DNA of 64,000 nucleotides from a virus (IMGVR_UViG_3300012983_000031:156296-220295), one strand, 5' to 3'. Numbered from the stretch's first letter, positions 36,371 to 58,667 are shown. Program-made: numbers and translations. The notes: generated by a model from the sequence alone, not told the origin.

Positions 36371-37039
36371 AATTCATTTCTCCTTTCATTGCTGTATTAC
36401 TTTTGTTTTTAATCTGATACAAAGTTACGAACTCCATCCGTAACCACCAAATCTTTTTTCCTAAAAAATGTTAAATCGAAACAGGATTTATATGAAATGT
36501 ATATGAGAAGGACAATTTATTTCCTAATATGATAAATGTGAACTCCAGACATCACGTCATTACCTTATATTATAATTCAGGATCAAATTAATTTCTGGAG
36601 TTCGCCATTAACATTTGTTAACATACTTCGGCAGATGATGATGCACGCGTCGGTCATCAGGTAATGTCAATGACATTACTTACTGGGGGTACCCCCTTCC
36701 TTGGGTACTGGTCAAAGCCTTGGGTTCACCTCCTTGAACTGTTGGTAATGTCAATGACATTACTTCTGGATCCGTGAAAGCATCTTGGTCATGGATTTAC
36801 TTGGACATATATGCACTTCTGGAGTTCGGCAGTGTCCCTGATCTGTTGGTAATGTCAATGACATTACTTGGCTGGCGACGCGTGCCAGATCCTGGTGTTA
36901 AAAAATGTTAAATGATGTTAACAAAAAAACAGGGACTACCCTCACGGGCAATCCCTGCAAACAACTTTAGTAAAAAATATAATCAAGACAAAAAGGTCAT
37001 TCTTTAGTCATCATGGAAGGAAGCACCTTCTTCATTTAC

Positions 37040-37426
37040 TTAACATACATTCTGTGCCTGTTCGAGGATTAATTTCGCCGACTTCTGGAGTTCGCCAGAT
37101 ATGAACCTGTTTGCTATTTCATCCGCCTGTTGGAAAATAGCATCCGCAAACTTCTGCATCTGCTTCTCCGAACGCCTGCCTACTTCTTTCAGGAAAACGT
37201 AATATCCCTGATGCTCCATCTTACCGTCATACATAACGCTGTAACTGTGCTCCTTGATGTTTATAGGTGTGACATAGCATGTGATGCCACGCCTCTGGAT
37301 CGCATCGCTGAAAACAGAGTGACCGCCAATATTGTGTTTAACCTCGATACGGATTGTGTTCGCCTTGAACCCCTTTCCGTCATCCACAGGATTCTCTAAC
37401 TTGATGTCTTTAATAAATTCCTTCAT
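37040..37426 (-). CDS. Hypothetical protein
   Basis: Cassette ORF. Confidence 0.75.
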   Translation of the reverse strand: MKEFIKDIKLENPVDDGKGFKANTIRIEVKHNIGGHSVFSDAIQRRGITCYVTPINIKEHSYSVMYDGKMEHQGYYVFLKEVGRRSEKQMQKFADAIFQQADEIANRFISGELQKSAKLILEQAQNVC

Positions 37427-37429
37427 GCT

Positions 37430-37735
37430 TCAAATGTCTTTATAAGTTAATTCTATTTCTGGAAAAAGTAATTGCGCTGAAAGCGATATGCCTGTCATCA
37501 AAGGATAGTACGCATTCTCTGGCGAACGAACATCATCCCCATGGGACAGATGATAGGATTTCCTGATCCCCTTCATGAAACACACATCCACATCATCCCC
37601 TTCAAGCCAAGCATAGAACCTGCACCTGTTGCCTTCCAGACCGAACGAACGTTCAACCCTTTTGTTTTCGACGAGTTCCCTTGCAAGTTCTATTTCTGGA
37701 GTTCCCGTTAAATCGTATATGCTAACACTTTTCAT
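37430..37735 (-). CDS. Hypothetical protein
   Basis: Cassette ORF. Confidence 0.7.
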   Translation of the reverse strand: MKSVSIYDLTGTPEIELARELVENKRVERSFGLEGNRCRFYAWLEGDDVDVCFMKGIRKSYHLSHGDDVRSPENAYYPLMTGISLSAQLLFPEIELTYKDI

Positions 37736-37983
37736 GCGAAATCCTGATATAGATCATGGTATATTGCATCAATTACCTTTTGAGGCAGTTTGCAGAGTGA
37801 TGCTGTTCCGTAGCCGTTCCTGCCCTCGAATGAGAGTGCGACTATTGTCTTGCCGTTGTCTGTCAGGGCGTAGTACTTTCCGCAAGCGGCTGAAAGTTGA
37901 ACGCTTCCACAATCCCTAACGACTTCGTTGATGAAGGAAAGTTTCTTGTTTTCCTTGCCTGATGTCAAACCAATCTTCTTCAT
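37732..37983 (-). CDS. Hypothetical protein
   Basis: Cassette ORF. Confidence 0.7.
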   Translation of the reverse strand: MKKIGLTSGKENKKLSFINEVVRDCGSVQLSAACGKYYALTDNGKTIVALSFEGRNGYGTASLCKLPQKVIDAIYHDLYQDFA

Positions 37984-38006
37984 AATTCATATTTGTTTTT
38001 AGTTGT

Positions 38007-38180
38007 TTATCCTTTTGAGAATATTACTGATATGTCCCCCTGTTCGTTGAATGCGTAGAGAGTCTTCGGTGATTCAGTCAGTCGGTAACGTTTGAACGCC
38101 TCACGATAATCTTCAAACTGTTCCTGTATGTTGCCGAAATCAGCGTGAAGCGTGTAACGTACATATTTTCTCTTTGCCAT
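38007..38180 (-). CDS. Small hypothetical protein (57 aa)
   Basis: MAKRKYVRYTLHADFG...; first gene after promoter (-7 at 38222-38229); below ORF-track cutoff. Confidence 0.65.
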   Translation of the reverse strand: MAKRKYVRYTLHADFGNIQEQFEDYREAFKRYRLTESPKTLYAFNEQGDISVIFSKG

Positions 38181-38432
38181 AGTCGTTGTTTTTTATGATT
38201 ACTTATTTTTTTAATTCATTGCAAAGTTACGTACTTATTCTGACATCACCAAATTATTTTAGTTAAATGATGTTAAACTGGTGAAAATAATTTCAGCATC
38301 TTCTGGAGTTCGCCCTCTGCATCCTGTGGTATTCCTGATATGTCATTGTCGGGAACCCGTTGCTGGATCTTGGCACGTTGGTGATGTATTCATCCCATAG
38401 ATGTTTTGGTGGCATAGTGATCTTGTATTATG

Positions 38433-38708
38433 TTAATAATATATGTTCTTTGATATTAATCTACTCTTTTTCCAGTGTTCCATCTTCTCGTTAACGTCTT
38501 TCGTCAGGTAGTCAACACATTCATAATATGTCGGAAACCTATACTTGCACAGTAACGTTCCGTAACCGTAATCACGATCATCATAAACATATTCTATCCA
38601 TATCTTAAATAACCAAAGATTCAGAAAAAGTTCTTCTGCATGATATTCGCTGTGACCATCAGCGAACGTCTTCTTTACGATGCGAAATGTCTTGTTACCT
38701 ATCTTCAT
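38433..38708 (-). CDS. Hypothetical protein
   Basis: FRIVKK...Y motif similar to 62966 protein. Confidence 0.7.
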   Translation of the reverse strand: MKIGNKTFRIVKKTFADGHSEYHAEELFLNLWLFKIWIEYVYDDRDYGYGTLLCKYRFPTYYECVDYLTKDVNEKMEHWKKSRLISKNIYY

Positions 38709-38760
38709 AATTATATTGTTTTTTGTTTGATGATGCAAAGGTACGACTATTATTTGAAAC

Positions 38761-38856
38761 TACCAAATATATTTCGTTAAAGAATGTTAATTTGATCAAG
38801 ATAATTTCTGATGACCAAGACGACTCACCGACATGGAGTAATGTCATTGACATTAC
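38761..38856. repeat. ~95-bp direct repeat (second copy 40123-40218)
   Basis: TACCAAATATATTT.GTTAAAGAATGTTAATTTGATCAAGATAATTT.TGATGACCAAGACGACTCACCGACA...palindrome. Confidence 0.9.
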
Positions 38857-38961
38857 TTTTCTGGCTATTAACTTCAGCATACTCGTCCGCCATGAACAAA
38901 AATAAAAAAGGATCGATCCATTATGTTCTGGATCGATCCCATTTCATGTTATGTATGTTTG

Positions 38962-39249
38962 TCAGCAAGCCTTGACTGCAAGACAGGCATACTGTCCTTT
39001 CAGTTTGATGTTGATATGGAATACCTTGCCATCGAGTTTGATCTTCACTCCGAAAGGACGTTTTGTCGATGAAACAAGTTGAATGCCATAGTCTGGAAAA
39101 TTCTTGTTGATTGAATTGAAGATCACCTTGCCGTATTCATTGATGTCCTCGTACTGGCTTTCATCACGCCATCTGTCATACAGGTTGAAGAAACAGTTGT
39201 CAATATTTTCATTGTTGATGATCGCTGATAATTTTTCGTAAGTAGTCAT
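38962..39249 (-). CDS. Hypothetical protein
   Basis: LY.RW.DE..YED...Y and TKRPFG motifs. Confidence 0.75.
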   Translation of the reverse strand: MTTYEKLSAIINNENIDNCFFNLYDRWRDESQYEDINEYGKVIFNSINKNFPDYGIQLVSSTKRPFGVKIKLDGKVFHINIKLKGQYACLAVKAC

Positions 39250-39272
39250 AATGCTTTTTGTTTTTTTATATG

Positions 39273-39632
39273 TTAATTAGTAATCTCTCCAGTTTCTTTA
39301 AGTTGATCGATCATCCAGTCATATCCCAAGAAGCCTTCGGATTTCTTGTCAGCCTCTTTAGACTCTGATTTCGTGACAAGCCTTACATTTACGTTTGCCA
39401 CCCATCCGTCGCCAAAGTCATGTTGAAAGTTACCCTCGTTCAATTTAGGGTAAATATTCTTGCCGTACCTGAATCCACGGCATGATCTCGTGTATTTCCT
39501 ACCCTCGCCCGTCCATCTGTTGTTCCAAGTGTTGAACCTCGGCATGGTAAGGGTGAAAAGAATATGATCCTTCTTCTCTGGCTTTATTTCAGTAAGTTTG
39601 TATAACTTTCCGTCTATTTCTATTGTCTTCAT
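39273..39632 (-). CDS. Hypothetical protein
   Basis: F.L.MP...W...W.GE, FGDGW.A, S.GF.GYDWMI motifs. Confidence 0.75.
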   Translation of the reverse strand: MKTIEIDGKLYKLTEIKPEKKDHILFTLTMPRFNTWNNRWTGEGRKYTRSCRGFRYGKNIYPKLNEGNFQHDFGDGWVANVNVRLVTKSESKEADKKSEGFLGYDWMIDQLKETGEITN

Positions 39633-39648
39633 AATCTGATTGATTTAC

Positions 39649-40068
39649 TCATTTAACAAAATGTGCGATGTCGAAATATATTTCAACAAAGCATTTATTT
39701 CCAATCATGCTCATTTCAAATACTATTCCTCCGCTGAAAGAACCGTATTCAGTCTTACCTCTCTTGATGATTTCATAAAGACCGTGATTTAGCCGTTCCC
39801 TCATACTGTCGATCATCTGTTCCTTCGTTGGTATTTCCTCCTTTGATCCATTGCTCCATGTCCAATCATTATCTTTCATGAATTTAAGCACAATATCAAA
39901 GTCAAAAGCACTCACCTCCTCATCAAATGCCTTGTTAAAGTTCCTCATGATGTTGATTTCATGACCAATCTTTAGGTCATTCATGTACTCGCTATCAAGT
40001 ATCTCATTAAGTTTCTTGATGTCAGACTCATGAAACTTACGCCATGTAGTGTTGATTTTGTATCCCAT
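39649..40068 (-). CDS. Hypothetical protein
   Basis: Promoter -7 at ~40098; start reassigned. Confidence 0.75.
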   Translation of the reverse strand: MGYKINTTWRKFHESDIKKLNEILDSEYMNDLKIGHEINIMRNFNKAFDEEVSAFDFDIVLKFMKDNDWTWSNGSKEEIPTKEQMIDSMRERLNHGLYEIIKRGKTEYGSFSGGIVFEMSMIGNKCFVEIYFDIAHFVK

Positions 40069-40325
40069 TGTCTTTAATGTTTTTGTTATTACTGGTGCAA
40101 AGTTAGTGACTTTATGTGACATTACCAAATATATTTTGTTAAAGAATGTTAATTTGATCAAGATAATTTATGATGACCAAGACGACTCACCGACAGGAAA
40201 TAATGTCATTGACATTACAACGCGGGACGAGGATATTTGAGTTTCTACTTATCAGGTTCGTATATAACAAAAAAATCGATCCCCAAGTTAATGGAGATCG
40301 ATCCGTGTCAAGTGTTGTGGCTATG

Positions 40326-40739
40326 TTAATAATCATTCGCTATGGTGTAAAGTGCAAGGTTGACTTTGACCCAGTTGCTGTTATTGACAGTCGATTCTAT
40401 GATCCTGATTCTGTATTCAGTATCGGATTTACTGTTAATATATTTGTTGAGGCTTTCAATATCCTCGCCACGTTTGCCTATCCAGATTCCTGGCCGATCT
40501 GTGACAAGATATATCACATCATCTATGACGAAAAGATCATTGAACTGTCTATTCTGCTTATTGTTTTTAGTCATCCACAATGCGAAATAGATGCAGATGT
40601 TTTCAGTCTGTTTCTTATCCTCTGCAATGGATGCAAGCCAACGGTAGAAAAGATAGTTTTTCTGATACTCGCTTCTCGAATTTTTATTCAAAAAATTTTT
40701 TAGAAATCTTTTCAGATATTTCTTTAAAATATTTTCCAT
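40326..40739 (-). CDS. KH-domain protein resembling the uS3 KH motif (paralog 2)
   Basis: LVTDRPGIWIGKRGEDIESLNKYI vs uS3 [20 protein letters not shown]. Confidence 0.7.
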   Translation of the reverse strand: MENILKKYLKRFLKNFLNKNSRSEYQKNYLFYRWLASIAEDKKQTENICIYFALWMTKNNKQNRQFNDLFVIDDVIYLVTDRPGIWIGKRGEDIESLNKYINSKSDTEYRIRIIESTVNNSNWVKVNLALYTIANDY

Positions 40740-40759
40740 AATTATTCCTGTTTTATTTT

Positions 40760-41149
40760 TCAGAAAAGTTTGTCAAACTTGTCAAGTATGACATAAGAAA
40801 TTGCCTTCTGCAAGTTGCCGTCACCAGCCTCCTTATATTCAGCGACAATCTCATCAGCCAATGCTTCCGCAACCTCATCTACAAACTTACCGAAAAGATT
40901 CCAACCGCTTGATGCGAACAGATCGATCACCTGTTGACGGATATTGTCATCATCATTATTCTCATCATCCTGTTTCAGGTTCTGTCTAAAAGGAATGGCG
41001 AATGAATCTACGCACCAACCGTATGTTTCAGTCAGATAATCAGCAATCTGATCCGCTGTGAGATCATCAGATACCTCTACTTCTGTAGGAAGGTCATCTG
41101 GAACAGTGCCGCTGTCTGAACAATCCCAAATAATGTATGTAATTTTCAT
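40760..41149 (-). CDS. Hypothetical protein sharing an N-terminal module with 29619-29996
   Basis: DLPTEVEVSDDLTADQIADYLTETYGWCVDSF. Confidence 0.75.
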   Translation of the reverse strand: MKITYIIWDCSDSGTVPDDLPTEVEVSDDLTADQIADYLTETYGWCVDSFAIPFRQNLKQDDENNDDDNIRQQVIDLFASSGWNLFGKFVDEVAEALADEIVAEYKEAGDGNLQKAISYVILDKFDKLF

Positions 41150-41293
41150 AAGATTTTTTGTTTTAATAGTTAATGATATTTTTTATTTTCTATGCAAAGG
41201 TATGAATAATATTTGATATGTGCAAGCAATTAACATACTTTAACCTGAACTTTTTTATTCCCTGTGATAGTTATACCTGATATGATCTCGTAA

Positions 41294-41776
41294 TCAATAC
41301 ATTCCTTCTGGTGCTTCAAGAGCAAGACCTAATTCAATAAGATTGCGAAAATCAAAATGATGGGAAAGAAGCCAATCAATAACATTTAAGTTTAATTTGA
41401 AACTATAAGAGTTATCAGTAAGGTGATGTGTAAAAACTAATATCCCATAATCTTCAAACCCAATATTCTTTGAATCTGCTGGAATATAGATAGAACATAT
41501 TTCTTTCAACTCTTTTTTTTCCTCCTCCGTCATGCTTGACATGGGTCGGAGATAGGGTTTACAATTAATAAGAGGATATGAAATTACGCTACTATAAAAA
41601 CCATAATGCCAAACAGTGACTCGTTTCTTTAATGCAGACGTGCCATAATTATCAATTTCTCTTAAATCATAAGCATCTGTATATTTACCTTTAGAATATT
41701 CTATTGCTACTTTAACTCCATAAGGCAACCTTGCTGAAAGGTCTATCAATACAAGTTGTTTTTCTTTTTGTGCCAT
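41294..41776 (-). CDS. DLSARLPYGV-family phage protein (paralog)
   Basis: DLSARLPYGV...KPYLRPMSSMT...IDWL..HFD.R.LI..GLALEAPEGMY shared with 58668, 60151, 60761. Confidence 0.8.
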   Translation of the reverse strand: MAQKEKQLVLIDLSARLPYGVKVAIEYSKGKYTDAYDLREIDNYGTSALKKRVTVWHYGFYSSVISYPLINCKPYLRPMSSMTEEEKKELKEICSIYIPADSKNIGFEDYGILVFTHHLTDNSYSFKLNLNVIDWLLSHHFDFRNLIELGLALEAPEGMY

Positions 41777-42062
41777 AATTATTCCTCCCAATAATAAATG
41801 ATTTAACTTTTTACTCTGCAAAGTTAAACATAATATTTGTAACCAGCAAATTAAATTAGTTAAACAAGGTTAACACGAACTCCAGTGAATCTTATTTAAC
41901 ATCAGTTAACGATCCAGTGATCAATGGAGTTCGCCTTCTGCGATCTGGCGGTAATGTCAATGACATTACTTGACAGGCGAGGCACTTCAGTCTTGACTGC
42001 CATCAGGATATGTTGCAACAATAAAAAAGCCGATCCTTCAATTTAGAAGAATCGGCTGTTAA

Positions 42063-42296
42063 CTAAAGAATCCTTACTGGTTCGCTGTCGTAGGTCATTT
42101 CATTTCCAGTCCATTGCTTGACCGTTCCTTTCGGCAGTATCGTTCCTTTGCTGTATTTTTCATCTATGCAGGAGATCTCCCACATCCTGCCCCACTTGAC
42201 TTCTAAAGGAAGGTTCGGAAAAGTCCTGTAAGGTTTCTCAGGAAAGATGCGTTCATTACCGTGTCCGTCAACGGCTACCCAAGTTTCAGTTTTCAT
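42063..42296 (-). CDS. Hypothetical phage protein
   Basis: WVAVD..G.E.IF...P.R...LPKGT...G.E.T...EPV. Confidence 0.75.
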   Translation of the reverse strand: MKTETWVAVDGHGNERIFPEKPYRTFPNLPLEVKWGRMWEISCIDEKYSKGTILPKGTVKQWTGNEMTYDSEPVRIL

Positions 42297-42352
42297 GATT
42301 AATCCTTATTTAAGTTTTAGTCAATCGCTTTGCTTTTTTGAAAAAACATCAG

Positions 42353-43189
42353 TTAAATATCTCCGAGCAAGTCGTTATAGCATCTGCCACAAAGAAATCT
42401 GTAATGTGTTATACAATTTATATCGGCATCGTATGGATCAATCACATAACTTGCAGGCTCACCGCATACAGAACAGAAACCAGCAGTATGCTTTCGTTCC
42501 TCCAGTTCTCTTTTTTCCATTTCAACCTTTTCCCTATATGCTGAAATCTGTTTTGCAAACTCTGTCTTTTGTGCATCAGTCCAGTCATAACTACTGGATA
42601 GATCGATCACGCCAACTGCAAACAAATCATCATACACGCCAAACCTGTTTGTGCTTAAACCAACATTTATAGTATGCTCTGGTATAATTTCACACGGATT
42701 ACCGCAACGGCATATAATGTAATCCTTATCCTTCTTGAACTTGAAGCCAGTAATATCAACTGGAGGTAGGTTCTCACCATATTCTGTGTAAGGCTTAACC
42801 CATTCCTTATAGAATTTGTTTCTTGTCTTGCAGTGTTTAGTTATGACCTCTGGTGCAGGATCACCCTTATGGTAAAATACTGATCTTCCATCCCTTGTAA
42901 ACAAAAGCATCCACTCACCATCAATAACCATGTCCTCATTATGGGAAGAATGATCCCACTTGTCGCCGAAAAAGAACCGACCTATCTTAAAACGCTCCGT
43001 ATCATTAAAGCAATGTATAATACACCCATTACGTTTCATTATATAAGTAGGTGAATATCCCTTTGCTGTCGATACGGGATCAGCATCATAATCATAAGGA
43101 TCAATCCCAAGTTCTGTTTCAGGATCATATCCGCCTCTATAAAACTGGAAAAAACCCAAACGTGAATTGTAACGTACACTTTGTTTCAT
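42353..43189 (-). CDS. Hypothetical protein with C-terminal CxxC..CxxC zinc finger
   Basis: CSVCG...DPY.ADI...LCGRCY. Confidence 0.8.
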   Translation of the reverse strand: MKQSVRYNSRLGFFQFYRGGYDPETELGIDPYDYDADPVSTAKGYSPTYIMKRNGCIIHCFNDTERFKIGRFFFGDKWDHSSHNEDMVIDGEWMLLFTRDGRSVFYHKGDPAPEVITKHCKTRNKFYKEWVKPYTEYGENLPPVDITGFKFKKDKDYIICRCGNPCEIIPEHTINVGLSTNRFGVYDDLFAVGVIDLSSSYDWTDAQKTEFAKQISAYREKVEMEKRELEERKHTAGFCSVCGEPASYVIDPYDADINCITHYRFLCGRCYNDLLGDI

Positions 43190-43516
43190 AATATGTAATG
43201 TTTAATTGTTTGATGATGCAAAGTTACGAACTTTATTTGTAACCACCAAATTAAATTAGTTAAAATGTGTTAACGCGAACTTCATGCAACACAGTTTAAC
43301 ATAAGTTAACGATCCAGTGATCGCTGGAGTTCGCCTTCGTGATCAGGATGTAATGTCAATGACATTACTTGGCAGGTACCCCGCATAAGATTCCTGAAAA
43401 AGATTCTGAGAAAAAACACAAAAAAACCGAGCAGAAAGTCTGCCCGATTTTTCAAGAAAGTTTTTGGAAAAAAATCTGGTTTTATTTTTGTAAAAAATCC
43501 TGAATTATTTCTGCGA

Positions 43517-43738
43517 TTAATCCAGCATAGAATTTCTGAAATCTTTTATTTCGTCATCCGATAGAAACCCATGTTTTCCTACGAACATTTTAAGCCACGA
43601 TTCAGCCTTGTCAATGATGTCGTTCGCCCCAGCAAGGTAACTGTCACGTAAAATGATCCACTTGTCGTTGAATATGCTTTTTCCGTTAGCGAACTCCATT
43701 GCTTTCCTTTTAAGCCCGTTACTCTTTTTTCCAGCCAT
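43517..43738 (-). CDS. Hypothetical protein
   Basis: YLAGA motif; start reassigned. Confidence 0.65.
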   Translation of the reverse strand: MAGKKSNGLKRKAMEFANGKSIFNDKWIILRDSYLAGANDIIDKAESWLKMFVGKHGFLSDDEIKDFRNSMLD

Positions 43739-43739
43739 G

Positions 43740-44276
43740 TCAGTCACAGGGATGAAAGTTAGGCAATGCTTCAAGAGCCTCCGTATTAACAGGGGTTGCT
43801 TGGAGTTCGTTTATTGCAACTGCATCGTCATCAGTGCAGTTAGCCTTGTCGTCGCAACACAGGTGCTTTGATGATTTGGTTGAGGCTTCATGCTCAATTA
43901 CTTCCCTTGCTATATTAAGCAGTTCATCAGTCCATTCGCAGATGCTATCATTAGACGGAACATCATCATGACCGTAGGCGGAATGCATACATTCTGAAAC
44001 GGCGTGCCAGAACTTCTTCCTCATTAACACATCCTCGTCAGTCACCCAGAGATCAAAAGACTTAGAGGTATTATCTGGATAGTAATCGCCATCCAATGTG
44101 TAGCGTTCAACACTTTCCGTGTCTGAATTATTGTGCTGAACGACAGCAACAATAGGAAACTCGTTACATTGAAGATCCCACTTGATAATCTCGACAGGAT
44201 TTCCTTCGCCAGTAACAACTTGAAGAGATTTGTCTTCAATTTGTTTCCTGTATTTGATGTTAAATCTTTCCCTCAT
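43740..44276 (-). CDS. Hypothetical protein
   Basis: V.T..G.PV.II.WD...PI.A...DL motif. Confidence 0.75.
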   Translation of the reverse strand: MRERFNIKYRKQIEDKSLQVVTGEGNPVEIIKWDLQCNEFPIVAVVQHNNSDTESVERYTLDGDYYPDNTSKSFDLWVTDEDVLMRKKFWHAVSECMHSAYGHDDVPSNDSICEWTDELLNIAREVIEHEASTKSSKHLCCDDKANCTDDDAVAINELQATPVNTEALEALPNFHPCD

Positions 44277-44846
44277 ATTCGTATATGCGTTTTTTAATTA
44301 AACAATTCAGGTGCAAAGGTAAGCATAATATATGAAACCGCAAAATTATTTAAGTTAAATAGTGTTAAGCGAACTCCAGATATTTCCAAGACGAAAGATG
44401 ATTGGCTGGCAGTAAAAGGTAATGTCATTGACATTACTCACGGATCGTGAAGGCGGATTGCGATCTGCCAGTTTTTTATCTTGGAGTTCATAAAATATGC
44501 GAAATCCAGATAACAGAAATATAACCTCATCTCTTTAGCGTTCTGTAATGTCAATGACATTACTTGCCCTCAAGAAGGCGCATACATCTCTTCAGCGTGA
44601 ATAGTTGACTGATCTCTGGAGTTCGCTTATATATATTGTACCCGTTCATTTTCAAATATTATTATGAGAAAAGTTTTGCGTTAATTTTTGAGATGGTTTC
44701 CTGTAATAATCATGAAAATAATCTGAAAAAAGTTTTGGAGTTTTAACATCATTTAACCAAAATAATTTTGCCAATTAAAATATTGTCCGTACCTTTGCAC
44801 CAGATTAAGAAACAAAAGTATTAACCAACAAAAAACATTAATGATT

Positions 44847-45389
44847 ATGGCAACAGTATTTGGAATCACGTTCAACTCACAGAACGAATTTGACATCAAC
44901 AAAAATTTCGACTGCATCAGTTCAATGGAAGATGGAGAAGAAGAAACAACGTTCCGCACGAAGAAGGTGTATCATCATGACGACGATCCTGACATCAGGT
45001 TTGATTACAGGTATGTCATAACGGCATGGACATCGGATCAGAACACTACGTACTATGCTCTGTATCTCATTCCAGAGTTCAGTTCAATCAGCGAACGCCA
45101 CCAGCAAGAAATAATCGATTTCTGTGGATGTGACACTCCTAACATCAGCGACATCATGAGTTACGGTGCTGATATTATAATGGGTGCAGAAACATACGAC
45201 GGGGAATACAGTCAGGATGTTGTGGACAATATCGCACAGGTCATCGACACAATCGACTCATTGATTGGATTCTATCTTGACAAATACCAAAACAGAATCG
45301 GTACGACAGGATGGGATATGTTGGAAGACTACATCAATGATGTGAACTGGATGACCGCCACTATGGAACGGTACAAAAAACAGGCATAA
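44847..45389 (+). CDS. Hypothetical protein
   Basis: Consensus promoter (-7 at 44790-44797); ends GFYLD...NRIG.TGWD. Confidence 0.8.
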   Translation: MATVFGITFNSQNEFDINKNFDCISSMEDGEEETTFRTKKVYHHDDDPDIRFDYRYVITAWTSDQNTTYYALYLIPEFSSISERHQQEIIDFCGCDTPNISDIMSYGADIIMGAETYDGEYSQDVVDNIAQVIDTIDSLIGFYLDKYQNRIGTTGWDMLEDYINDVNWMTATMERYKKQA

Positions 45390-45785
45390 CCATTTTGTTT
45401 TATTAATACTTCTTTTGTTGTTAGGGGGCAACGGGCTTTAAGTTCGTTCGCCCCTTTTCTTGTGTGCATAAGAACCGACAGGGGACAGAGGAGAATGGAG
45501 GCGACAGCCAAGTAATGTCACTGACATTACAGCCTGATTAAGGAGGCGAACCCAAGGCTTTGGTCAGTACCCAAGCACGAGATGTAAACAGTAAGTAATG
45601 TCACTGACATTACCGCCAGATCACAGGATGAGCAATCAGGGTTCCGTGGCGTTCGTTCAGATCAAATTATTTTCACGAATTTAACATTGTTTAACTAAAA
45701 TATTTTGGAGGTTACAAATAAAGTTCGTACCTTTGCATCAGATTAAGAAACAAACAAGTATTAACAAATTAAAACAAAATGCCTT

Positions 45786-46280
45786 ATGAAAAAGAACAAC
45801 AAGAAAATCTGGACTATCTGGGATAACAACCAGTCCTATGACGAATGGAAGGAAAATATGATTAACGATGGTTACGAAGATGAGGAACTTTCGTATGACT
45901 TCTTCTGCGATGATTTGTCAGAGCAACTTAACTGTGAACGCCTTAACCTTAATATAAATGTTGATGGGTATATCGTGGTGTTCGCAAATATGGGTTTATG
46001 GAACGGCAAACACAACGGGGCAGGAATTATCGGAACGAACGTGAAGGATATTCTTTACTCGGAATGCGACTACGTTCATTGGTATTGCGACAGGTACAAC
46101 GTTCGCTGCGATGCTGCACATCATGACGGCACAAACCACTACCTTTACCGTGTGGCAAAGGATAAGGAAACAGCGGAGAGGCTTATTGACAAAATCGTTT
46201 ATAATGGTATAACGGAAGAACAGTTTCGCAAGGCAACTCGGAGTCTGCGACCTTATATCGCAAAGGTGTACGGATGGTGA
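45786..46280 (+). CDS. Hypothetical protein
   Basis: GLWNG, HHDGTNHYLYR, VYGW motifs. Confidence 0.8.
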   Translation: MKKNNKKIWTIWDNNQSYDEWKENMINDGYEDEELSYDFFCDDLSEQLNCERLNLNINVDGYIVVFANMGLWNGKHNGAGIIGTNVKDILYSECDYVHWYCDRYNVRCDAAHHDGTNHYLYRVAKDKETAERLIDKIVYNGITEEQFRKATRSLRPYIAKVYGW

Positions 46281-46381
46281 ACGAACTCCAGCAACAGGAA
46301 TAAGGACAGTCAGAAATGACTGCCCTTTTTTTGTGACTTATTGACAAGAATGCGGATGACATCATCTCTGAGGATCAGGGA

Positions 46382-46575
46382 ATAATGTCATTGACATTAC
46401 AGACGGCGCGACGTGCATGGTCATCTCTTGGAGTTCGTTGCCAAGATAACGATAAGGATCCTTTTTCCAGGGAGTAATGTCAATGACATTACAGATGACA
46501 CGACGTGCATGGACATCTCTGCCAAGGCAACGCTAAGGATCCTTCTCGTCCTGAAAATAATGTCAGTGACATTAC
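46382..46575 (+). repeat. Degenerate tandem repeat (~85-90 bp) built on the palindrome
   Basis: palindrome-AGA.G.C.CGACGTGCATGG.CATCTCT...GCCAAG...AACG.TAAGGATCCTT twice, then a third palindrome. Confidence 0.85.
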
Positions 46576-46731
46576 CTCCAGATCACGGGACACTGCCGAA
46601 CTCCAGAGGTTGCCTTGAAATTAATTTCACCAGTTTAACGTTGTTTAACGAAAATATTTTGGTGGTTATAAATAAAGTTCGTACCTTTGCATCAGTTAAA
46701 GAAAGTATTAACTACTAAAACAAATGGCATT

Positions 46732-47765: not shown

Positions 47766-47784
47766 CCAATAAAACATTTACATT

Positions 47785-48021: not shown

Positions 48022-48076
48022 ATTTGTTTCATACATAAATGTTAATTTTCATTTTAGTGAGTTTTTAGCGAGTGGA

Positions 48077-48640: not shown

Positions 48641-48918
48641 TATGCCATTTAGATTTTTTGTTGGAGGCTCGCACCCATACCCTTGGGTTCGAGTCTTTTT
48701 TATGCAATTATGCGAACTCCAAGGAACCTCATCATCTCTGGGTGATCTTGTTGTAATGTCAGTGACATTACTTGATGGACGACGGATCCAATCCTTGGTT
48801 AGCATAGGCTTGCTACATTTAGTTAAATAATGTAAACACAATGAAGAAATATGGATATTCGTTTTGTTATTTCAAATATTATTCGTACCTTTGTACCGAA
48901 TTAAAAAACTATATAGCA

Positions 48919-49233
48919 ATGGGTTTATATAAGAATAATAAGTCAGCAAAGGTCGGCACTGAAATTGAGTGCCCAGTTTGTCATAAAAGATTTATCAAAA
49001 AGTCTTATCAACAAGCCTTTTGCTGTAAGGATTGCAAAGAGAAATTTTGGAATCGCACAAGAAAGTCCAATGGATATTTCCGTAGGTACAATGCTGAACA
49101 CCCAGAAAGATTGGAACGAGTAGGAATCAATACTGAAATGGATGCAAACTTATGCTTGGGTGATGATGAGTGTGAAAGCCTTGCACAAATTACATTAGAT
49201 GAAAGTTGTAAATATGATAATTGTTTCTTCTAA
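48919..49233 (+). CDS. Zinc-finger protein
   Basis: ECPVCHKRF....QAFCCKDC. Confidence 0.75.
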   Translation: MGLYKNNKSAKVGTEIECPVCHKRFIKKSYQQAFCCKDCKEKFWNRTRKSNGYFRRYNAEHPERLERVGINTEMDANLCLGDDECESLAQITLDESCKYDNCFF

Positions 49234-49549
49234 AATATTTTAATGAAATAAACCCATAGGGACTATATATACTTCGTTACAGGGTTGGGTTCGGTTGTAC
49301 ATCGCAACTGAACCTTTCTTTTTTATTCTGACAACGAGTACAATCGCACGCGTCGCCCATCAGGTAATGTCAATGACATTACCTCCTGATCGCGAGATGG
49401 TAAATCAGGATCTGTCGGATTCACTGGAGTTCGTTAAATAATGTTAAACACATTCATTTTGTCGGGAAATCCTTTGGATATGTCACAGGAAACCACTAAC
49501 TTTGTACCACAATTCAAAAGAGTATTAACCAATTAAAAAACAAAGCATT

Positions 49550-49735
49550 ATGAAAAAGGTAAACATTCAAGTGACACTTAACATTGTCGCCATTGTCGAA
49601 GATAGTTATGAGGATGCAGGTGTAGATAACATCTTAGATTGCATCGAAATCACAGCCAACGGAGATGAAGAATTTGTCAAAGTCGAATCATGCGAAATTG
49701 AAAATTTCCACTCAACTGATGTTGAAAAGTATTAA
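49550..49735 (+). CDS. Small acidic protein
   Basis: Promoter and leader upstream. Confidence 0.7.
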   Translation: MKKVNIQVTLNIVAIVEDSYEDAGVDNILDCIEITANGDEEFVKVESCEIENFHSTDVEKY

Positions 49736-49755
49736 CCAATTAAAAAACAAAAAAT

Positions 49756-50145
49756 ATGAAAAAGGAGTATTACTTAATCAACGTAATCGGCAAGGATGGA
49801 TATTCGTTTGTCGTATATGGATGCTTTAAGGATGATGAAGATGCTATTGAACAGGCACAAAAACGTTCCTTGTTCCAAGACGAAGAAGATGCGGACAGGG
49901 CTTGTGCGGAAATTGCATCGGATGAAGATGTAAGGCATTTCAGAGAGTGTGAATGCCTCTTTGACTTGACCAGCGGATCGAAGACAGTTTCAGTCGAGTT
50001 CTACTATGAGAACGGACAGTACGGAATCTATGCAGCAGGCAGCAGCGACAGCGGAATTACAGTCAATGGAAACACACCAGAAGAATGTGCGAAAAATTTC
50101 TATCCGTATCTCAAAGATTATCTGACAAATTTATGCAGGATATAA
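49756..50145 (+). CDS. Hypothetical protein
   Basis: Own copy of the GTATTAACCAATTAAAAA leader. Confidence 0.75.
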   Translation: MKKEYYLINVIGKDGYSFVVYGCFKDDEDAIEQAQKRSLFQDEEDADRACAEIASDEDVRHFRECECLFDLTSGSKTVSVEFYYENGQYGIYAAGSSDSGITVNGNTPEECAKNFYPYLKDYLTNLCRI

Positions 50146-50274
50146 TCCGAAAATTTTCTTGACATTTTTTAACAAAAAAAGTTGGAAAAAAATTTGGATA
50201 TTATTTTGAAAGTTCGTAACTTTGCATCATCAAACAAACAACAATAGTATTAACCAACAAAAAACTAAAACATT

Positions 50275-50538
50275 ATGGCACGTAAAATTTTCTCTAACGG
50301 ATGTTTCGCAGAAGCACACGAAATCATCATCAACGGCAAAAAGCAATGGCGTTGGGTAGTTACATCTTTCGAGGATGACACGTTTGAAAACGGCGAGAAC
50401 ATCATCGTGAACGAAAAGGGCAAAAAGGAAGAAGACCTTTTCCCACAGGAAGACGAACCTACAATCGAGGAAAACATCGACTACTTGCTTAATGATGACC
50501 TCTATGCAGGAATAACAGAATTTGAAGACAGATATTAA
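50275..50538 (+). CDS. Small acidic protein
   Basis: Consensus promoter (-7 at ~50217). Confidence 0.75.
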   Translation: MARKIFSNGCFAEAHEIIINGKKQWRWVVTSFEDDTFENGENIIVNEKGKKEEDLFPQEDEPTIEENIDYLLNDDLYAGITEFEDRY

Positions 50539-50795
50539 AAGATAGTTTCTTTCTCTGCTCATAATTTTACTTCGGCAGGTGCTCGGACTGAAAAGTTCGG
50601 GCACTCGCTTTTTTGTGGCGAACAACCCAGTTATACGTGGATCCGTCGCCAGTCAAGTAATGTCACTGACATTACACACCAGATCACCAGCGGGAATGGA
50701 TCCATCAAGGTGGAGTTTGTACACACAAAAAATGTTCGGCGAACTTCACAGCCAGCCGAACACAACTCAAATTTTCAAACTTAAATTATTCAAAA

Positions 50796-50954: not shown

Positions 50955-51404
50955 ACTGTTATATGTTTTTGTAATTCGGTACAAAGTTACGGCTTTTATT
51001 TGAAACAACCAAACGTTAAAACGTTAAAATACGTTAAACGAATGCAATGATAACATTCTTTAGCATATACGTTAAACTCAGGTTCATCGACGCATATCCT
51101 GATAGTAATGTCAATGACATTACATCCTGATCACAAGATGGTAACATCAGGATTATACTGATAAGCATTGAAGTCCCTTGAGGAGGATACAGCAAAGGAA
51201 TGTCAATGACATTACACCAGCTCACGACGGGTTTGCTGATCCATCTTCTGGAGTTCGGCGAACTTCATATGCAACCGAACCCACCATATAAAATTACGAT
51301 ATTCAAATTATCTTTGTTAAAGAAATCACTTTAACACATCGCTGACCATACGTACCCGACATACGTGACCGATTCATAACAGCTCCGTAATGTCAGTGAC
51401 ATTA

Positions 51405-51734
51405 CTACTGGGGTGCCTCCTCTTCAGACACTGCGGAGAAAAACGGATTGTACTTAAGTGACTTGATGATGTTTTCAAGATACAGGCACTCGTCCAAGAA
51501 TCCATTCACCTCATCATGTGACAGACTGAACCATTCGTTACTGACCCTCGACATCGCATGACGAGCGTGAAGCATCTTCTCCATACGGAACGGGTGGCTT
51601 GTCCTGTGGTGAGCGACCATGCTAATTTCGTTGGCGTTGCCTGTCTGCAACTTCTTTATACGACCTTCGATAGACCCTCTCGTCACGCCTATCTTGTAAT
51701 ACTCGCCATCCGTTAGAAGATAAACATATCCCAT
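51405..51734 (-). CDS. T5orf172/GIY-YIG-superfamily nuclease-like protein
   Basis: GYVYLL...YKIGVT....RIKKLQTGN...EKMLH...EWF. Confidence 0.85.
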   Translation of the reverse strand: MGYVYLLTDGEYYKIGVTRGSIEGRIKKLQTGNANEISMVAHHRTSHPFRMEKMLHARHAMSRVSNEWFSLSHDEVNGFLDECLYLENIIKSLKYNPFFSAVSEEEAPQ

Positions 51735-52200
51735 GTAATTATTGAGGTTGCTTTTTGAGTTCGCACTATTTATTCGAGTCGATAGTTCTCTGGAGATCGT
51801 CATCATAATGTCAGTGACATTACTTCGGATTATCCAGCTGGAAAATTCAGGAATAATTCTTCGTAAAAATCTTGGAAAAAAGTTGATAAAAAAGCTGAAG
51901 CTTTTTCCAAAAATAAATATAAGGGTGATTGCGGATAATCACCCGAATTTCTTTTCTGTTTTTTCATAATTGTTTTTGGAGAGTGGATGTGGTTCGAGAG
52001 GATAGCATCCATTTTTCGTCAATGGGACTCTGATGGCAGGTTTGCTTTTCAGGCTGTAATGTCAACGACATTACCTGACGACCGACGAGATTGAGCGGTG
52101 TTAAATACCTGTCGGTTGTGAACAAAAAAAATCAAGAGCGAACTTCACAGCCAGCCCTTGATGCTCAATAACCTAAATACTATGATAGAAAAAAAAGATA

Positions 52201-52611: not shown

Positions 52612-53388
52612 AATTCCATTAAGTTTTAATTGGTTAATACTTCCTTTAATTATGGTACAAAGTTACTATTTTTCGCTGACCCTACCAAATAAAACGCAAA
52701 CAAATTTAAGGTCATTAACAAACTTTAACGAACTACATTGGAATGCTCATACGCCCGTGAAGGCGTTGAAGTAATGTCAGTGACATTACCTGACGCTATT
52801 GTTACCTTCTTTTGCAAATCATTGATTATCAATACGTTATATACATTTTTACATCTCATTTTCGTGATAAGATAGATACGGTGCTAACCAGAAAGTTAAT
52901 ACATTAATTTACCTGTTCCATCTGAACACTCATTAGTTGTAACAGGAGTTGTTCGAGTCTGTCGCGGGAAGTAATGTCACTGACATTACCGAACGATCTC
53001 CCGCAGGTTTTCTTAGGAAACTTATGAAAAAAAATCCAAGAAAAATACACAAGAAAAGTTGAGATTTTTTTCAGTAAAAATTTCAAGAAAAATCTTGGAA
53101 AAAATACAAGGAATACAATGAACTCATCTTGGCTTCCTCACAGCATTGTAATGTCAATGACATTACTCAGCTCGGAACTGTGCAGATTGGCTGCACAGTA
53201 ATACCTGGTACTCAGCAAGACATAGTAATTACCATCGCGTGATCTGGTGGTAATGTCACTGACATTATATCCCGATCAGGATCGATCGACAGGCATCGAT
53301 GGTCTTCTCTTGGGTTCGCTTGACACAAGCAAAAAGGACACCGAACTTATGTCCGATGTCCTACCGACTTTTGCGGCATTACTGCCGA

Positions 53389-53856: not shown

Positions 53857-54351
53857 AATTCCATTTGTTTTTTGTTGGTTAATACTCTTTTGAATTGTGG
53901 TACAAAGTTAGTGAATTTTTATGGCATATCCAAAGGATTTAACGACAAAATGAAGGTATTTAACATTATTTAACAAACGGTATAAACAGAAGAGAAAGGA
54001 TGTGCCAGCCGAGTAATGTCATCGACATTACATCCTGAACCCGCACGTGTGGAGCGGCTCACCAAGGGATTCCGTGAAGCGTCATCATAATGTCAGTGAC
54101 ATTACATCCTGAACTGCTGCTGTATCCTCTCTTGACGAGAAGGTTCATGCGACAACCCAATCTACGGCAGCACAATCGTCTGCCTTGTACAGTTGTTAAT
54201 GTCAGTGACATTATTGGATCGGCAAGATAGCGAGGATTAACTCGTGTCGTGCGCAGATAAATATTTGGAATCGAGATCCATCGCGGCGAAGTTAATGTCA
54301 GTTACATTACCGCCAGATCACGGGATTCCTTCTGCTGGAAAGAATTATACA

Positions 54352-54447
54352 AAAAAATCAGCGGCTACCCTCACGAGCAACCGCTGACAAAAAATGTTGA
54401 TATGAGCAAAATAAAAATCCCTTAATTCATTATTCTTTTTAATTGTG
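54352..54447 (-). ncRNA. Candidate small RNA (gene-less promoter-terminator unit)
   Basis: -7 element 54451-54458; only ATG-AAT-TAA mini-ORF; body GGGAUUUUUAUUUUGCUCAUAUCAACAUUUUUUG; GTGA-loop terminator 54358-54387. Confidence 0.6.
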
Positions 54448-54914
54448 ATACAAAGTTACGGATTTCCTATGACATATACAAGAAAAACACAAACGAAATT
54501 AAGGTCATTAACAAACTTTAACGCACAGCATTGACCACCGAAATCTTCAGATGCCCGACAGCAGGTAATGTCAGTGACATTACTCAGCTCTCAGTTTCGA
54601 GTTGATTTCCATCACCGATTTCTCGTAAAAAACTTCCAAGAAAATCTCGGAAAAAAATCAAAAAAGTTTCAAGAAAAATTTCCAAGAAAAAAATGGAAAA
54701 ATTCATGCGGAAAAATCCAAAGTAATGTCGCTGACATTAAACGCTGGAAAGTATAGCAGAAGTCACTGTCCAAGCAAACAGAACGCAACAGGAGGTAATG
54801 TCGCTGACATTACAAGACGACCGAATAGGGCGGATACTAATCCGTCCTTACACAAAAAATGGGATTGCCCCTTGCGGAACAATCCCACGAAACAATTCTT
54901 ACATATATGAAAAC

Positions 54915-55469: not shown

Positions 55470-55858
55470 AATTGTAAGTGGTTTAAGTTAATACTATTGT
55501 TTCCTAAATCTGTTGCAAAGTTACGGAAAATATTTGATATAAACAAGGCCTGAGGGCAACTTTTTTAAGCCATTTAACATTTTTTAACAATCTGTACGGC
55601 AGACCACTCCGCCGTGTCGGACAGTGGTGTAATGTCATTGACATTACTCGCCGATCACGAGATGGAAGACGACCTTATCTTCCAACGAATCGCTACCTTT
55701 ACTTAATTCCAAGACAACCAGTTTGGATCGCTCTGTAATGTCACCGACATTACTCTGGACGAGAAGCAGAAGTACCTGTCGGAGTACCTGCCACAAAAAA
55801 GTTGAGGCTCGCATCACTGCGAACCCCAACCACAAATTATCCCAAAATAAAGATTCCT

Positions 55859-56071
55859 TTACAAATTTGATAGCATCCACACCACCGCTGCGACTATCAG
55901 CACCACTATTAAAATCCAGAACAAGCCAGAGCAGATGCTTACTAATGCGGCAAATATACCCTCCACCGAAATACCGAACAACCAAAACAACTCTTTCAGA
56001 ACGAACCACAACATAGGCAGAACGAACACCAAGAGAAAGAGGCAGATGAATGTCTTAAATAAAAATTTCAT
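55859..56071 (-). CDS. Small membrane protein
   Basis: Almost entirely hydrophobic; promoter at ~56099. Confidence 0.7.
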   Translation of the reverse strand: MKFLFKTFICLFLLVFVLPMLWFVLKELFWLFGISVEGIFAALVSICSGLFWILIVVLIVAAVVWMLSNL

Positions 56072-56506
56072 ATCAGTTACATTTATTGGTTGATGTTGCA
56101 AAGTTACGGCTTTTTTCTGACACCGCAAAATTTTCAGTGTTAAAAAAATTAAACAACCGAAATTTTTTTTCACACGAACAACCCAAATCTCAGAAGGGCT
56201 TCACAATAATGTCACCGACATTACTCACTGGAAAAAACAACCCCTCGGTTGCCGAAGCCACCTCTATGAAGGCGGTCAATCTTACGGGCATAATGTCAGT
56301 GACATTACCCGATGGAAAAAAGGTTCCTTAGCGTTGCCTTAACGAGAGATGTTCATGCACGTCGCGCCGTCTGTAATGTCACTGACATTACTCCCTGGAA
56401 AACCAACAAGTCTTGTCTTCAGCACACGTTCAATGAACAAAAAAGTTCGGCTACCCTCACGGGCGACCGAACTCCGAATAACCTAAAACCTATTATGCGT
56501 AAATGT

Positions 56507-56668
56507 CTATATCTTCTTTATGTCAAGCGGACACTCCGACAACACGTTTAATGCCTTTCCGCACTTTCCGCAGATGTAAGTAGGCATCCAATCCGACAAA
56601 CTGCCGTATTTCGCTGACCGCTTGGTGTAAAAGGGGCAACCCCTTGATATGCAGATGCTCTTTAACAT
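56507..56668 (-). CDS. Small Cys-rich protein
   Basis: C....CP...CGKCG...CP; promoter at ~56696. Confidence 0.6.
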   Translation of the reverse strand: MLKSICISRGCPFYTKRSAKYGSLSDWMPTYICGKCGKALNVLSECPLDIKKI

Positions 56669-57208
56669 ATATCCTTGTCTTTTTGTTTTATAGTGCAAAG
56701 TTACGGCTTTTCCGTGACATACCGAAATTTTCCGTGTTAAAAAAACTTAAACCGCAAAACTTTTTTTCACGCAGCACGGCAACGCAGCAGTGCCTCCGCC
56801 TGCCAAGTAATGTCAGCGACATTACGAAGCAATGTCCATCGATTTCCGCCATTGGACATGGAAGCCAATGAGATGCTCATCAACCCGTGAACCAATCCAA
56901 GTAATGTCATCGACATTACGAAGCAATGTCCCCGCTTTTTCCGCCATTAAGAAAATTATTTATGTCAAAAATTGTTAAATAGGTGTTAAGAAACGTGAAC
57001 AAGGATTTTAACATTTTTTACGTTAAGGAATTTTGCCATATCAAATTTTTTTCGTATGTCTGTATATACGATGACATCAAACCGTGAACCTCTCAAAGTA
57101 ATGTCAGTGACATTACACAAGGGCAAGCACGAGCACGAACGTCGTTGTCAGCAAAAAAAAAGGCGACCCGCTTGGGTTCGCCATTAAATACAAGATTAAA
57201 AAATACTC

Positions 57209-57442
57209 TTACTCACCGAATATGTCGGAACTTAATTCATCGAGCAAGTCCGACACGTCATCGAGCCATCCGCTCCTCGCAAGCGTTCCCAACGCAGCCA
57301 TAGGGAAGAATATCAGCGAGAATCCAAGCAGAGGACTGATGCTGAATGTGCTGTCAGCCGCTATGATGCCGAACATGAACACCAAAACCATTAAAAGCAT
57401 TACCAGCAACTTGAAACTTTTATACAACATAAGTGCGTGCAT
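57209..57442 (-). CDS. Small two-TM membrane protein
   Basis: Two hydrophobic helices, acidic tail; promoter -7 at ~57484. Confidence 0.7.
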   Translation of the reverse strand: MHALMLYKSFKLLVMLLMVLVFMFGIIAADSTFSISPLLGFSLIFFPMAALGTLARSGWLDDVSDLLDELSSDIFGE

Positions 57443-58667
57443 AAGAATCTACTTTTTTAGTTAAACTATTTATGTTATCTTATGCAAAGTTACGAACTTC
57501 ATGGCAAACACGCAATAGGTAAATTCCTATTTCACAAATATTAACATAAGGATGCGGCAGAACAGCAAGAATCTTGATGCTGTAAGTAATGTCAGTGACA
57601 TTATGTAAGCAAAAATGATGACTTTGCTTACACACTTTTGAAAAACCTCGGAACTTTTTTTGCAAGAGGTGTCATTTTGATAGGTGAACTGCAATTTTTG
57701 CTTACAATATGTCAAAACGCACGTTTATACGCCGAAAACGCTGGGCAACAGGGGGTAATGTCAGTGACATTATCACCAGATCACCCAGAAACACCCCTAA
57801 ATGACCAATATTTGATGGCATATATGGAAGGTATATGATATATGGTGCCTACGCATATCATGCCAAAAACATTATCAAATTCAGCACGTGCGGACATATT
57901 TTATATCTGATAACGAAATCGTCACCGAAGAATTTTTATTGCGATACGGAAAGGAATGCGGAAAGGGATACGGAAGTTCGTTCGGAAATACGTACTGATT
58001 CTGCTACCGAAAGTGTTAACAAATGTTAAACGGAAATTGATACTACTCCAAGCAAACAGAAGTAAACGGTAGGTAATGTCAATGACATTACTGAAGCTGC
58101 AAAGACGACGCGATTCAGTAGAGGGGGTTCTGAATTGGCTCAGAAACGGACCTTGGAAAGGGGCCGATTTTTTGGGTTCGGGAGAGGGGGACCGAGGGGG
58201 ACCTTTGATCCCGTAAGCGAACTCCAGGAATCAGATTAAAATTAATTCTATTATTTTTCCCCCACTTTTCCCCACTAAGTATCGAACTCCAGTAATTACT
58301 TATGTTCTTATATTTTTGGATCTTCAACATTATTAATAATGTTGTAATATTTTTTCAAGATAATTTAGAATTATTTCTTGTGTTCGTTATCATGTATTAT
58401 TTTTTGTATTTCAGTTAATTATCTGTCATTTTAATATTTTTTTTCTTTATTGTATATCATTCTTGTGTTGAAATATATTATTTTTCTTTTCAGAGATCGA
58501 ACTCCAGGAATTGGTTAGTTATAGTTGTTTATCTATTCGTTCGAACTCCAGTTGTTTATTGTTTGTTCACATATTTTTTTTCATGTTTTGCTTAAAAAGT
58601 CATTTATTTATTTTTCTATATGGATTAAAAGTAGTATCTTTGCGTCGCGAATTAATTTTTGTTTATT

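Follow-up and report, generated by a model that had tools for sequence, protein, structure and literature searches.

A palindrome family within a domain of small-gene cassettes

The DNA analysed here ("the window") is the final 64 kb (64,000 nucleotides) of IMGVR_UViG_3300012983_000031, a virus record that comprises one contig of 220,295 bp, is classed as linear and has a completeness of ~60% as estimated by CheckV; coordinates are positions in the window unless another contig is named. Near-identical contigs, and the sequencing runs containing this sequence, come from bovine gut and rumen metagenomes, and the source is an uncultured jumbo phage of the cattle gut. Small genes follow one another from ~7 to 58 kb of the window, with a separate promoter for each gene or short gene group and with GC-rich hairpin terminators bearing T-runs after the genes. 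The promoters of these cassettes are of the Bacteroidota type (-33 TTTG, -7 TAnnTTTG) and carry two TTAAC boxes 10 bp apart on their upstream side. A phage gene of the sigma-70 family lies at 8844-9704. Scattered among the genes over 50 kb are the copies of a 19-bp palindrome with two 9-bp halves around a central base (9-N-9), GTAATGTCA-N-TGACATTAC, and it is the spacing of these copies, to each other and to the promoters, that concerns us here.

The palindrome occurs 62 times in the 220-kb record, always between positions 8175 and 58091 of the window, and the search pattern (TAATGTCA-N-TGACATTA, up to one mismatch allowed) has no match in the remaining 156 kb. Its core is nearly invariant and 51 of the 62 copies are perfect palindromes, while the flanks are unrelated to each other. 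Neighbouring copies lie between 28 bp and 3.6 kb apart, and 40 of them are found in the final 14 kb of the ~50-kb cassette domain, the densest part of which (52.6-58 kb) is poor in genes. An exact scan for the 19-mer returned no match in viral contigs and only single chance matches per contig in metagenome and genome contigs; blastn with 8 kb against a phage collection gave nothing relevant, single-protein searches for related loci found none, and a search of the literature found no paper describing these palindromes.

Neighbouring palindromes are spaced by whole helical turns

The original prediction, made from the sequence alone, had listed the start-to-start distances of close neighbours and proposed that they approximate integral turns of the DNA helix. 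The pattern search reproduced each of these distances exactly (73 and 74; 83 and 84, three times each; 92, 92, 94 and 96; 102, 104, 106 and 109; 126; 157; 169; 177; 190; 197 and 200; 251; and 273 bp) and added two that had been missed, namely 71 bp (8204 to 8275, involving a site with one mismatch) and 318 bp. The same spacings recur in assemblies made independently from other samples (L032, L033 and L035-L040), so these are not assembly artefacts.

Neighbour distances of up to 320 bp (n=28 in the window) were submitted to a periodogram from 4 to 40 bp with the Rayleigh Z as score, and compared with a null model in which every distance was jittered by up to 8 bp and periods of 10-11 bp were scanned. 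The global maximum of the periodogram lies at 10.6 bp (Z 11.9, against Z 10.6 at 10.5 bp), the mean phase is ~0 at a period of 10.45 bp, and none of 4000 jittered sets matches the observed one, confirming that the spacings are non-uniform modulo 10-11 bp. When three homologous spacers were removed, 4 of 4000 jittered sets reached the observed value, and 3 of 4000 did so when only unique distance values were retained. Most spacers are, as had been proposed, unrelated in sequence, with only two clear homologous families (5 of the 28 spacers) and one A/T-rich group of low complexity. The 28-bp pair (8175/8203) is the exception it had been taken for and lies out of phase, and distances of 418-488 bp are likewise out of phase.

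The spacing rule recurs in relatives whose palindromes differ

Searches with the sigma factor and with a 184-amino-acid (aa) protein encoded in the dense region led, through homologues at 55-60% protein identity, to contigs of related phages that share the cassette layout and the promoter grammar. These relatives keep the 9-N-9 format of the palindrome with different letters: TTAAT[C/T/G]TCA-N-TGA..ATTAA in L041, L044, L056 and L058, and GTTAT[C/T]TCA-N-.. in L028 and L057. In a further contig (L059:4574-20063), an unrelated GC-rich palindrome, GCGATCCGA-N-TCGGATCGC, is present in ~15 copies, mostly one per intergenic gap. Pattern scans of viral contigs for the relatives' palindromes gave single matches only. 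Homologues of a 164-aa protein were discarded as a route to relatives, as the contigs they led to (L053-L055) are unrelated and hold no such palindromes.

The 79 distances of up to 320 bp in the relatives, none of them excluded, peak at 10.6 bp with a Z of 12.4; a single one of 2000 jittered sets matches this value, and a V-test for which the period (10.5 bp) and the phase (0) were set beforehand gives p 0.001. A pooled set of 101 distances reaches a Z of 22 at 10.57 bp, and its histogram falls into the classes 62-63, 71-74, 81-85, 91-96, 101-109, 110-115 and 124-126 bp with empty gaps in between. Collapsing 133 intervals from the window, a strain variant and the relatives to 71 homology families, each represented by one interval, leaves a Z of ~13, a V-test p of ~1e-4 and no match among 2000 jittered sets. 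The clustering of centre distances at multiples of ~10.4-10.6 bp with a phase of ~0 is replicated in divergent relatives, which bears out the proposal that the sites lie on the same face of the helix.

The register extends to the promoter and not to the terminator

The first palindrome of an intergenic gap follows the stem of a strong terminator at a distance of 54-78 bp, with one case at 118 bp (terminator 48074-48108), and the distances between terminator and palindrome (n=22) are not periodic (p 0.79), providing a negative control for the phasing. On the other side of the gap, the centre of the nearest upstream palindrome lies 92-134 bp from the T of the promoter's -7 box, in classes near 103, 114, 125 and 134 bp. 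Pooled over the window and the relatives (n=47), these distances show a Z of 15.8 at ~10.9 bp that no jittered set out of 2000 attains, and the periodicity survives a collapse to 26 homology families (median Z 8.9, p <1/300).

Within the spacer of ~17 of the 48 promoters, a sequence resembling a half-site, GTnATGTCA, occupies a fixed place and could serve as a weak partner site, a possibility that is suggestive only. The full motif of the ~48 promoters between 8757 and 57065 reads TTAAC-N5-TTAAC, -33 TTTGG and -7 TAnnTTTGCA, and it is conserved across lineages including L028, L041 and L044; the 10-bp separation of its two TTAAC boxes suggests a second bound factor. A role of the palindrome as a -35-like element recognised by the phage sigma factor was considered and rejected, as a conserved -10 element is missing from the flanks and TGACA is replaced by TGAGA in relatives.

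Three further observations concern the surroundings of promoters and palindromes. An "empty" cassette at 54357-54458 on the minus strand consists of a full promoter, a two-codon open reading frame (ORF; ATG AAT TAA) and a strong terminator, with a predicted RNA of ~95 nt. Some promoters have A-tract repeats (GAAAAAATTCTG-like) on their upstream side, beside palindromes and with a period of 12 bp, at 21696-21766, 35801-35888 and 54652-54713. Finally, an 8-mer, GGAGTTCG, or its complement, CGAACTCC, has 74 copies in the record and 49 in the window, often 30-60 bp from palindromes.

Properties of a probable duplex site

A palindrome may act as double-stranded DNA or as a hairpin, and the folding energies, the sequence variation and the surroundings of the sites all bear on this distinction. 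As RNA, the 19-mer folds better than shuffled sequence, with -8 to -10 kcal/mol compared with -21 to -24 kcal/mol for the terminators, and a simple terminator scan flags a few of its copies. The stem has only three G-C pairs and no consistent T-run. Neither the stable GC stem with U-tract of an intrinsic terminator nor the pairing-preserving covariation of a structured RNA is found here, and Rfam holds no match to the palindrome. As the terminators are strong and separate and the palindrome hairpin is weak, the palindrome constitutes a third element in the untranscribed gap rather than a terminator.

In the relatives, position 5 of the half-site varies independently in each arm (16 symmetric sites where 19 are expected, and 18 where 21 are expected), and in 22 of 54 sites of the L056/L044 lineage a stem would contain a non-wobble mismatch. 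The independence of the halves, the conservation of the sequence and the helical register together favour a dimer that recognises double-stranded half-sites. In the GTTAT[C/T]TCA lineage (L057, L028), position 5 is C on one side and T on the opposite side in 36 of 42 sites; 6 sites are symmetric there, against 21 expected, and the orientation flips inside one array. A clustered regularly interspaced short palindromic repeat (CRISPR) array would consist of direct repeats beside cas genes, with spacers of near-uniform length, whereas the copies here are dispersed among the genes of 50 kb and the distances are as variable as given above for neighbouring copies.

Strain variants, candidate proteins and positions of the sites

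Compared with the window, the strain variant L034 has gained or lost whole cassettes and palindrome-plus-spacer units between 52 and 58 kb, with break points inside palindromes; the gained units are bounded by palindromes and measure 83-85 bp and 136 bp. Contigs from other runs join at palindromes and promoters, which is weak evidence. A -15 bp change in L034 turns the 109-bp distance, which had been listed as an exception to the spacing rule, into 94 bp.

Two genes stand out by their position. The gene at 8301-8750, which precedes that of the sigma factor and encodes 131 aa, is without a host-type promoter, and a GATAAATA motif lies at this gene, immediately after the third palindrome of the adjoining array. 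Relatives keep tandem palindromes at the equivalent place ahead of the sigma region, as pairs 48-49 bp apart. Searched as a candidate binder, the 131-aa protein gave no Pfam match, no informative Atlas match and a poor stored model. The second gene encodes a 133-aa T5orf172/MUG113 (GIY-YIG-like) protein (51405-51806, minus strand) and has a palindrome directly adjoining it at either end, the two being 418 bp apart; relatives have homologues where their own palindromes are dense (L056 6059-6373, L057 5300-5602), and the protein is a candidate for binding or nicking the palindrome. All arrays and single sites are collected in Table 1.

Table 1. Palindrome arrays, single palindromes and example elements of the cassette domain.
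Feature	Position	Strand	Sites, distances or motifs	Context
3-palindrome array	8175..8292		19-mers 8175-8193, 8203-8221, 8274-8292; centre distances 28, 71 bp	Between a divergent host-type promoter (~8086, minus) and the 131-aa gene preceding the phage sigma factor gene
20 single palindromes	11630..50675		Starts 11630, 13074, 16695, 18662, 20331, 21748, 24011, 26737, 28007, 30334, 31590, 34664, 38838, 40200, 41951, 43350, 47285, 48753, 49364, 50657	One per intergenic gap, each between a terminator and the next promoter; 20331 between two convergent terminators
3-palindrome array	36661..36867		Starts 36661, 36745, 36849; distances 84, 104 bp	After terminator 36958-36929 (minus), before promoter ~36427 (minus)
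Palindrome pair	44419..44563		126 bp	Divergent junction of minus-strand and plus-strand cassette blocks, between divergent promoters
Palindrome pair	45512..45613		83 bp	Spacer homologous to the spacer of 36661-36763
3-palindrome array	46382..46575		Distances 92, 83 bp	Spacers mutually homologous, with a 9-bp indel between them
Palindrome pair	48217..48319		84 bp	3' of terminator 48074-48108 (plus)
3-palindrome array	51105..51405		Distances 92, 190 bp	Last copy abuts the 3' end of the T5orf172 gene
Palindrome pair	51805..52074		251 bp	First copy abuts the start of the T5orf172 gene
4-palindrome array	52771..53268		Distances 200, 177, 102 bp	Within ~780 bp without ORF
7-palindrome array	54013..54813		Distances 74, 109, 96, 273, 157, 73 bp	Spans the "empty" promoter-terminator cassette 54357-54458 (minus)
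Palindrome pair	55629..55753		106 bp	After terminator 55831-55800 (minus)
3-palindrome array	56206..56391		Distances 84, 83 bp	
3-palindrome array	56807..57116		Distances 94, 197 bp	
Final 3 palindromes of the domain	57586..58091		Distances 169, 318 bp	
Example cassette promoter	45681..45738	plus	TTAAC-N5-TTAAC boxes, -33 TTTG, -7 TAnnTTTG	
Example intrinsic terminator	48074..48108	plus	16-bp stem and T-run, -24.3 kcal/mol	

A model of phased operators acting on cassette promoters

Taken together, we consider it fairly probable that the palindromes are duplex sites at which a putative dimeric protein, able to self-associate, would act on the cassette promoters via small loops. The arrangement combines a dyad-symmetric duplex site, whole-turn spacing (with the exception of the tandem pairs and of distances above 140 bp in the relatives) and register with the promoter, as would be expected of phased operators, and from it we infer protein binding, DNA looping and an effect on transcription. 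Specifically, a putative sequence-specific dimeric protein would bind the 19-bp palindromes and, over 6-13 helical turns, would contact either further copies of itself or a complex at the promoter; this binder is most likely phage-encoded, because the version of the site changes with the lineage. Given that the sites sit after the terminator of one cassette and upstream of the host-sigmaA-type promoter of the next, in what appears to be an untranscribed gap, and given their register, occupied sites and the promoter would all lie on one face of the helix. Such a geometry would permit small DNA loops or a cooperative array, with co-ordinate control of the early cassette promoters, as shut-off or activation, as the likely outcome, and the array may also insulate neighbouring cassettes. 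The original prediction had gone further in stating that bound dimers must share a helical face, and here the phasing agrees with it, while "must" is too strong in view of the fact that no binding protein was found. Similarly, its claim of a DNA-level architectural function is upheld as regards DNA instead of RNA or CRISPR-like repeats, by the terminators, the half-sites, the Rfam result and the spacing, but not as regards a purely architectural role, since the sites keep register with the promoter downstream as well and promoter-linked regulation fits better.

Several results weigh against this model. In the window alone, the periodicity between palindrome and promoter is weak (p ~0.035) and is lost upon de-duplication; the period between palindromes (~10.5 bp) and that between palindrome and promoter (~11.0 bp) are unequal; and a palindrome lies upstream of only about half of the promoters. 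In the relatives, tandem pairs with a spacing of 48-51 bp lie out of phase, like the 28-bp pair of the window, and distances above 140 bp give no signal (n=11). Two long intervals lose their phase in the strain variant, going from 190 to 163 bp and from 200 to 183 bp. The expectation that indels between sites come in units of ~10-11 bp holds for three changes in L034 (+11, +20 and +40 bp) and fails for three others (-15, -17 and -27 bp), and among 23 length differences within homologous spacer families, 12 are within 1.5 bp of a multiple of 10.5 bp (binomial p 0.12). AA/TT periodicity or curvature inside the spacers, in phase with the sites, is not significant. Pfam and PHROG searches of 107 ORFs of the window returned no DNA-binding family besides the sigma factor, and the record, ~60% complete, has no match to HTH_3, ParB (ParB_N) or HU.

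The palindromes could, alternatively, be phased protein-bound sites for genome organisation, with a centromere-like, condensing, domain-marking or origin function that gathers the 50-kb early domain (cf. parS/ParB, matS/MatP and origin iterons). We regard this as unlikely, even though the confinement of all 62 sites to one 50-kb domain, with 40 in its last 14 kb, and the scarcity of genes in the dense part speak for it, and wrapped or bridged nucleoprotein arrays predict phasing equally. The sites, however, follow the boundaries of transcription units singly and in register with the next -7 box, neither ParB_N nor HU has a match in the record, and for an origin 62 sites across 50 kb would be needless. 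Far less probable still is an action of the palindromes as RNA or single-stranded DNA hairpins, be it as terminators, processing sites or antisense-RNA units. The folding energy of the 19-mer and the few copies flagged by the terminator scan are what such an action would predict, but the sites lie past strong T-run terminators, have few G-C pairs and no consistent T-run, tolerate non-wobble mismatches with independently varying halves and lack an Rfam match, and helical periodicity would be meaningless for RNA.

Two other explanations take the periodicity for a by-product, and we hold either of them to be improbable, to about the same degree. The quantised spacing might have arisen through array evolution (duplication of units, recombination between palindromes or slippage of ~10-bp motifs) with no selection for a helical face. 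Some spacers are indeed homologous (families of 83/84 bp and of 83/92/103 bp), the strain variant gains whole palindrome-bounded units, and the contig joints of related strains fall at palindromes and promoters, the last being weak evidence; yet the periodicity remains with one interval per homology family and also across lineages whose spacers show no detectable similarity, the distance classes are split by empty gaps instead of spreading about one ancestral length, and the register reaches the promoter and not the terminator. The palindrome might also be a selfish or recombination element, of the kind of repetitive extragenic palindromic (REP) sequences or miniature inverted-repeat transposable elements, a joint like the attC of integrons, or a target of the T5orf172 nuclease, in which case the periodicity would reflect an insertion preference. 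That palindromes bound the gain and loss of cassettes between strains, and that the palindrome-flanked T5orf172 gene is conserved in the dense region of relatives, is in line with this idea. On the other hand, the record has no transposase of the Y1/RAYT (REP-associated tyrosine transposase) family above the cut-off, the sole match to PF01797 being sub-threshold (14.9 bits) and carrying a stop, and no tyrosine recombinase (no match to PF00589); moreover, a 19-bp unit with unrelated flanks corresponds to no known mobile unit, and no known insertion mechanism yields whole-turn spacing to both sites and promoters.

Returning to phased operators that act on promoters, a bolder and distinctly more doubtful extension is that this family of jumbo phages folds its whole early domain into a chain of micro-loops by means of a phage protein on lineage-specific 9-N-9 palindromes, by which dozens of host-type promoters would be switched together while remaining insulated from each other. 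If true, this would amount to a genome-scale, looping-based control grammar of a kind not described for any phage. The phasing offers a testable handle on how large uncultured phages co-ordinate many small early genes. The 19-mer itself could be used as bait for a new family of DNA-binding proteins, with the versions found in relatives as natural specificity variants, and should the protein loop DNA, the system could supply compact orthogonal gene-control parts for Bacteroidota.

Comparison with known systems

In its layout of cassettes, the domain is closest to the promoter-early stem-loop (PeSL) regions of T4-type phages. In both, small genes whose function is unknown occupy a plastic region, every one with a terminator and a strong early promoter of the host type, and repeated regulatory motifs stand at the points where cassettes are gained, lost or swapped (PMC2839356, PMC4122927). 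The repeats described here likewise flank ORFan cassettes and mark the joints of gain and loss, as seen in the unit and cassette insertions of L034. They differ in that the PeSL stem-loop is itself the terminator beside the early promoter, whereas here the real terminators stand apart, 54-78 bp upstream of the palindrome, and the palindrome is multiplied in phased arrays; the abstract on PeSL reports no phasing (PMC2839356).

Other multicopy elements resemble the palindromes in single respects. The REP sequences, bacterial interspersed mosaic elements (BIMEs) and REPINs of bacterial chromosomes are short multicopy extragenic palindromes between transcription units that are sometimes clustered with preferred spacing. 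Many short palindromes between transcription units are found here too, but REPs are imperfect, form doublets with conserved spacers and go with a RAYT transposase, while the spacers of the present arrays are unrelated and no RAYT passes the cut-off. Integron attC sites join promoterless cassettes through a tyrosine recombinase; in the window every cassette has its own promoter. At the origin of lambdoid phages, four iterons lie side by side within a single gene, and the O-some formed there is a phased, wrapped nucleoprotein complex. Lambdoid iterons are similarly 19-bp dyad repeats whose sequence changes with the lineage, together with the binding protein, but they number four at one locus compared with 62 sites at cassette boundaries in this phage. 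Among eukaryotic viruses, the homologous regions (hrs) of baculoviruses, which are bound by a dimer of IE1, come close in another way. They form arrays of 3-8 palindromes ~60-70 bp apart, dispersed over a large viral genome, and these palindromes enhance early promoters and are possibly origins (PMC4535591). Unlike the present arrays, in which mostly unrelated spacers keep only the phase, the hrs consist of conserved direct-repeat units (64 bp in SpltNPVII).

A mechanistic parallel to phased operators is offered by bidentate repressors with auxiliary operators, namely LacI (O1 and O3 at 92 bp), GalR, NagC and AraC. Helical-phase dependence is the classic sign of proteins that communicate along DNA and is known from single operons. 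For LacR, looping depends strongly on the helical phase at operator spacings of 57.5-155.5 bp, and the period fitted to loops in vivo is 10.95-11.6 bp (PMC1762422). The palindromes share with LacI-type looping the dyad sites 60-150 bp apart, a phase-dependent effect there and a phased spacing here, the presence of several sites per promoter region, and a weak half-site-like element within the promoter; they differ in lying ~100-135 bp upstream of the -7 box, with a period of 10.5-11.0 bp, and in scale, as the 62 sites extend over 50 kb and dozens of promoters, and a single array can have as many as seven of them. In this phage, helical phase appears as a rule that extends over 50 kb and ~60 sites and that is kept in relatives in which the sequence of the site has changed.

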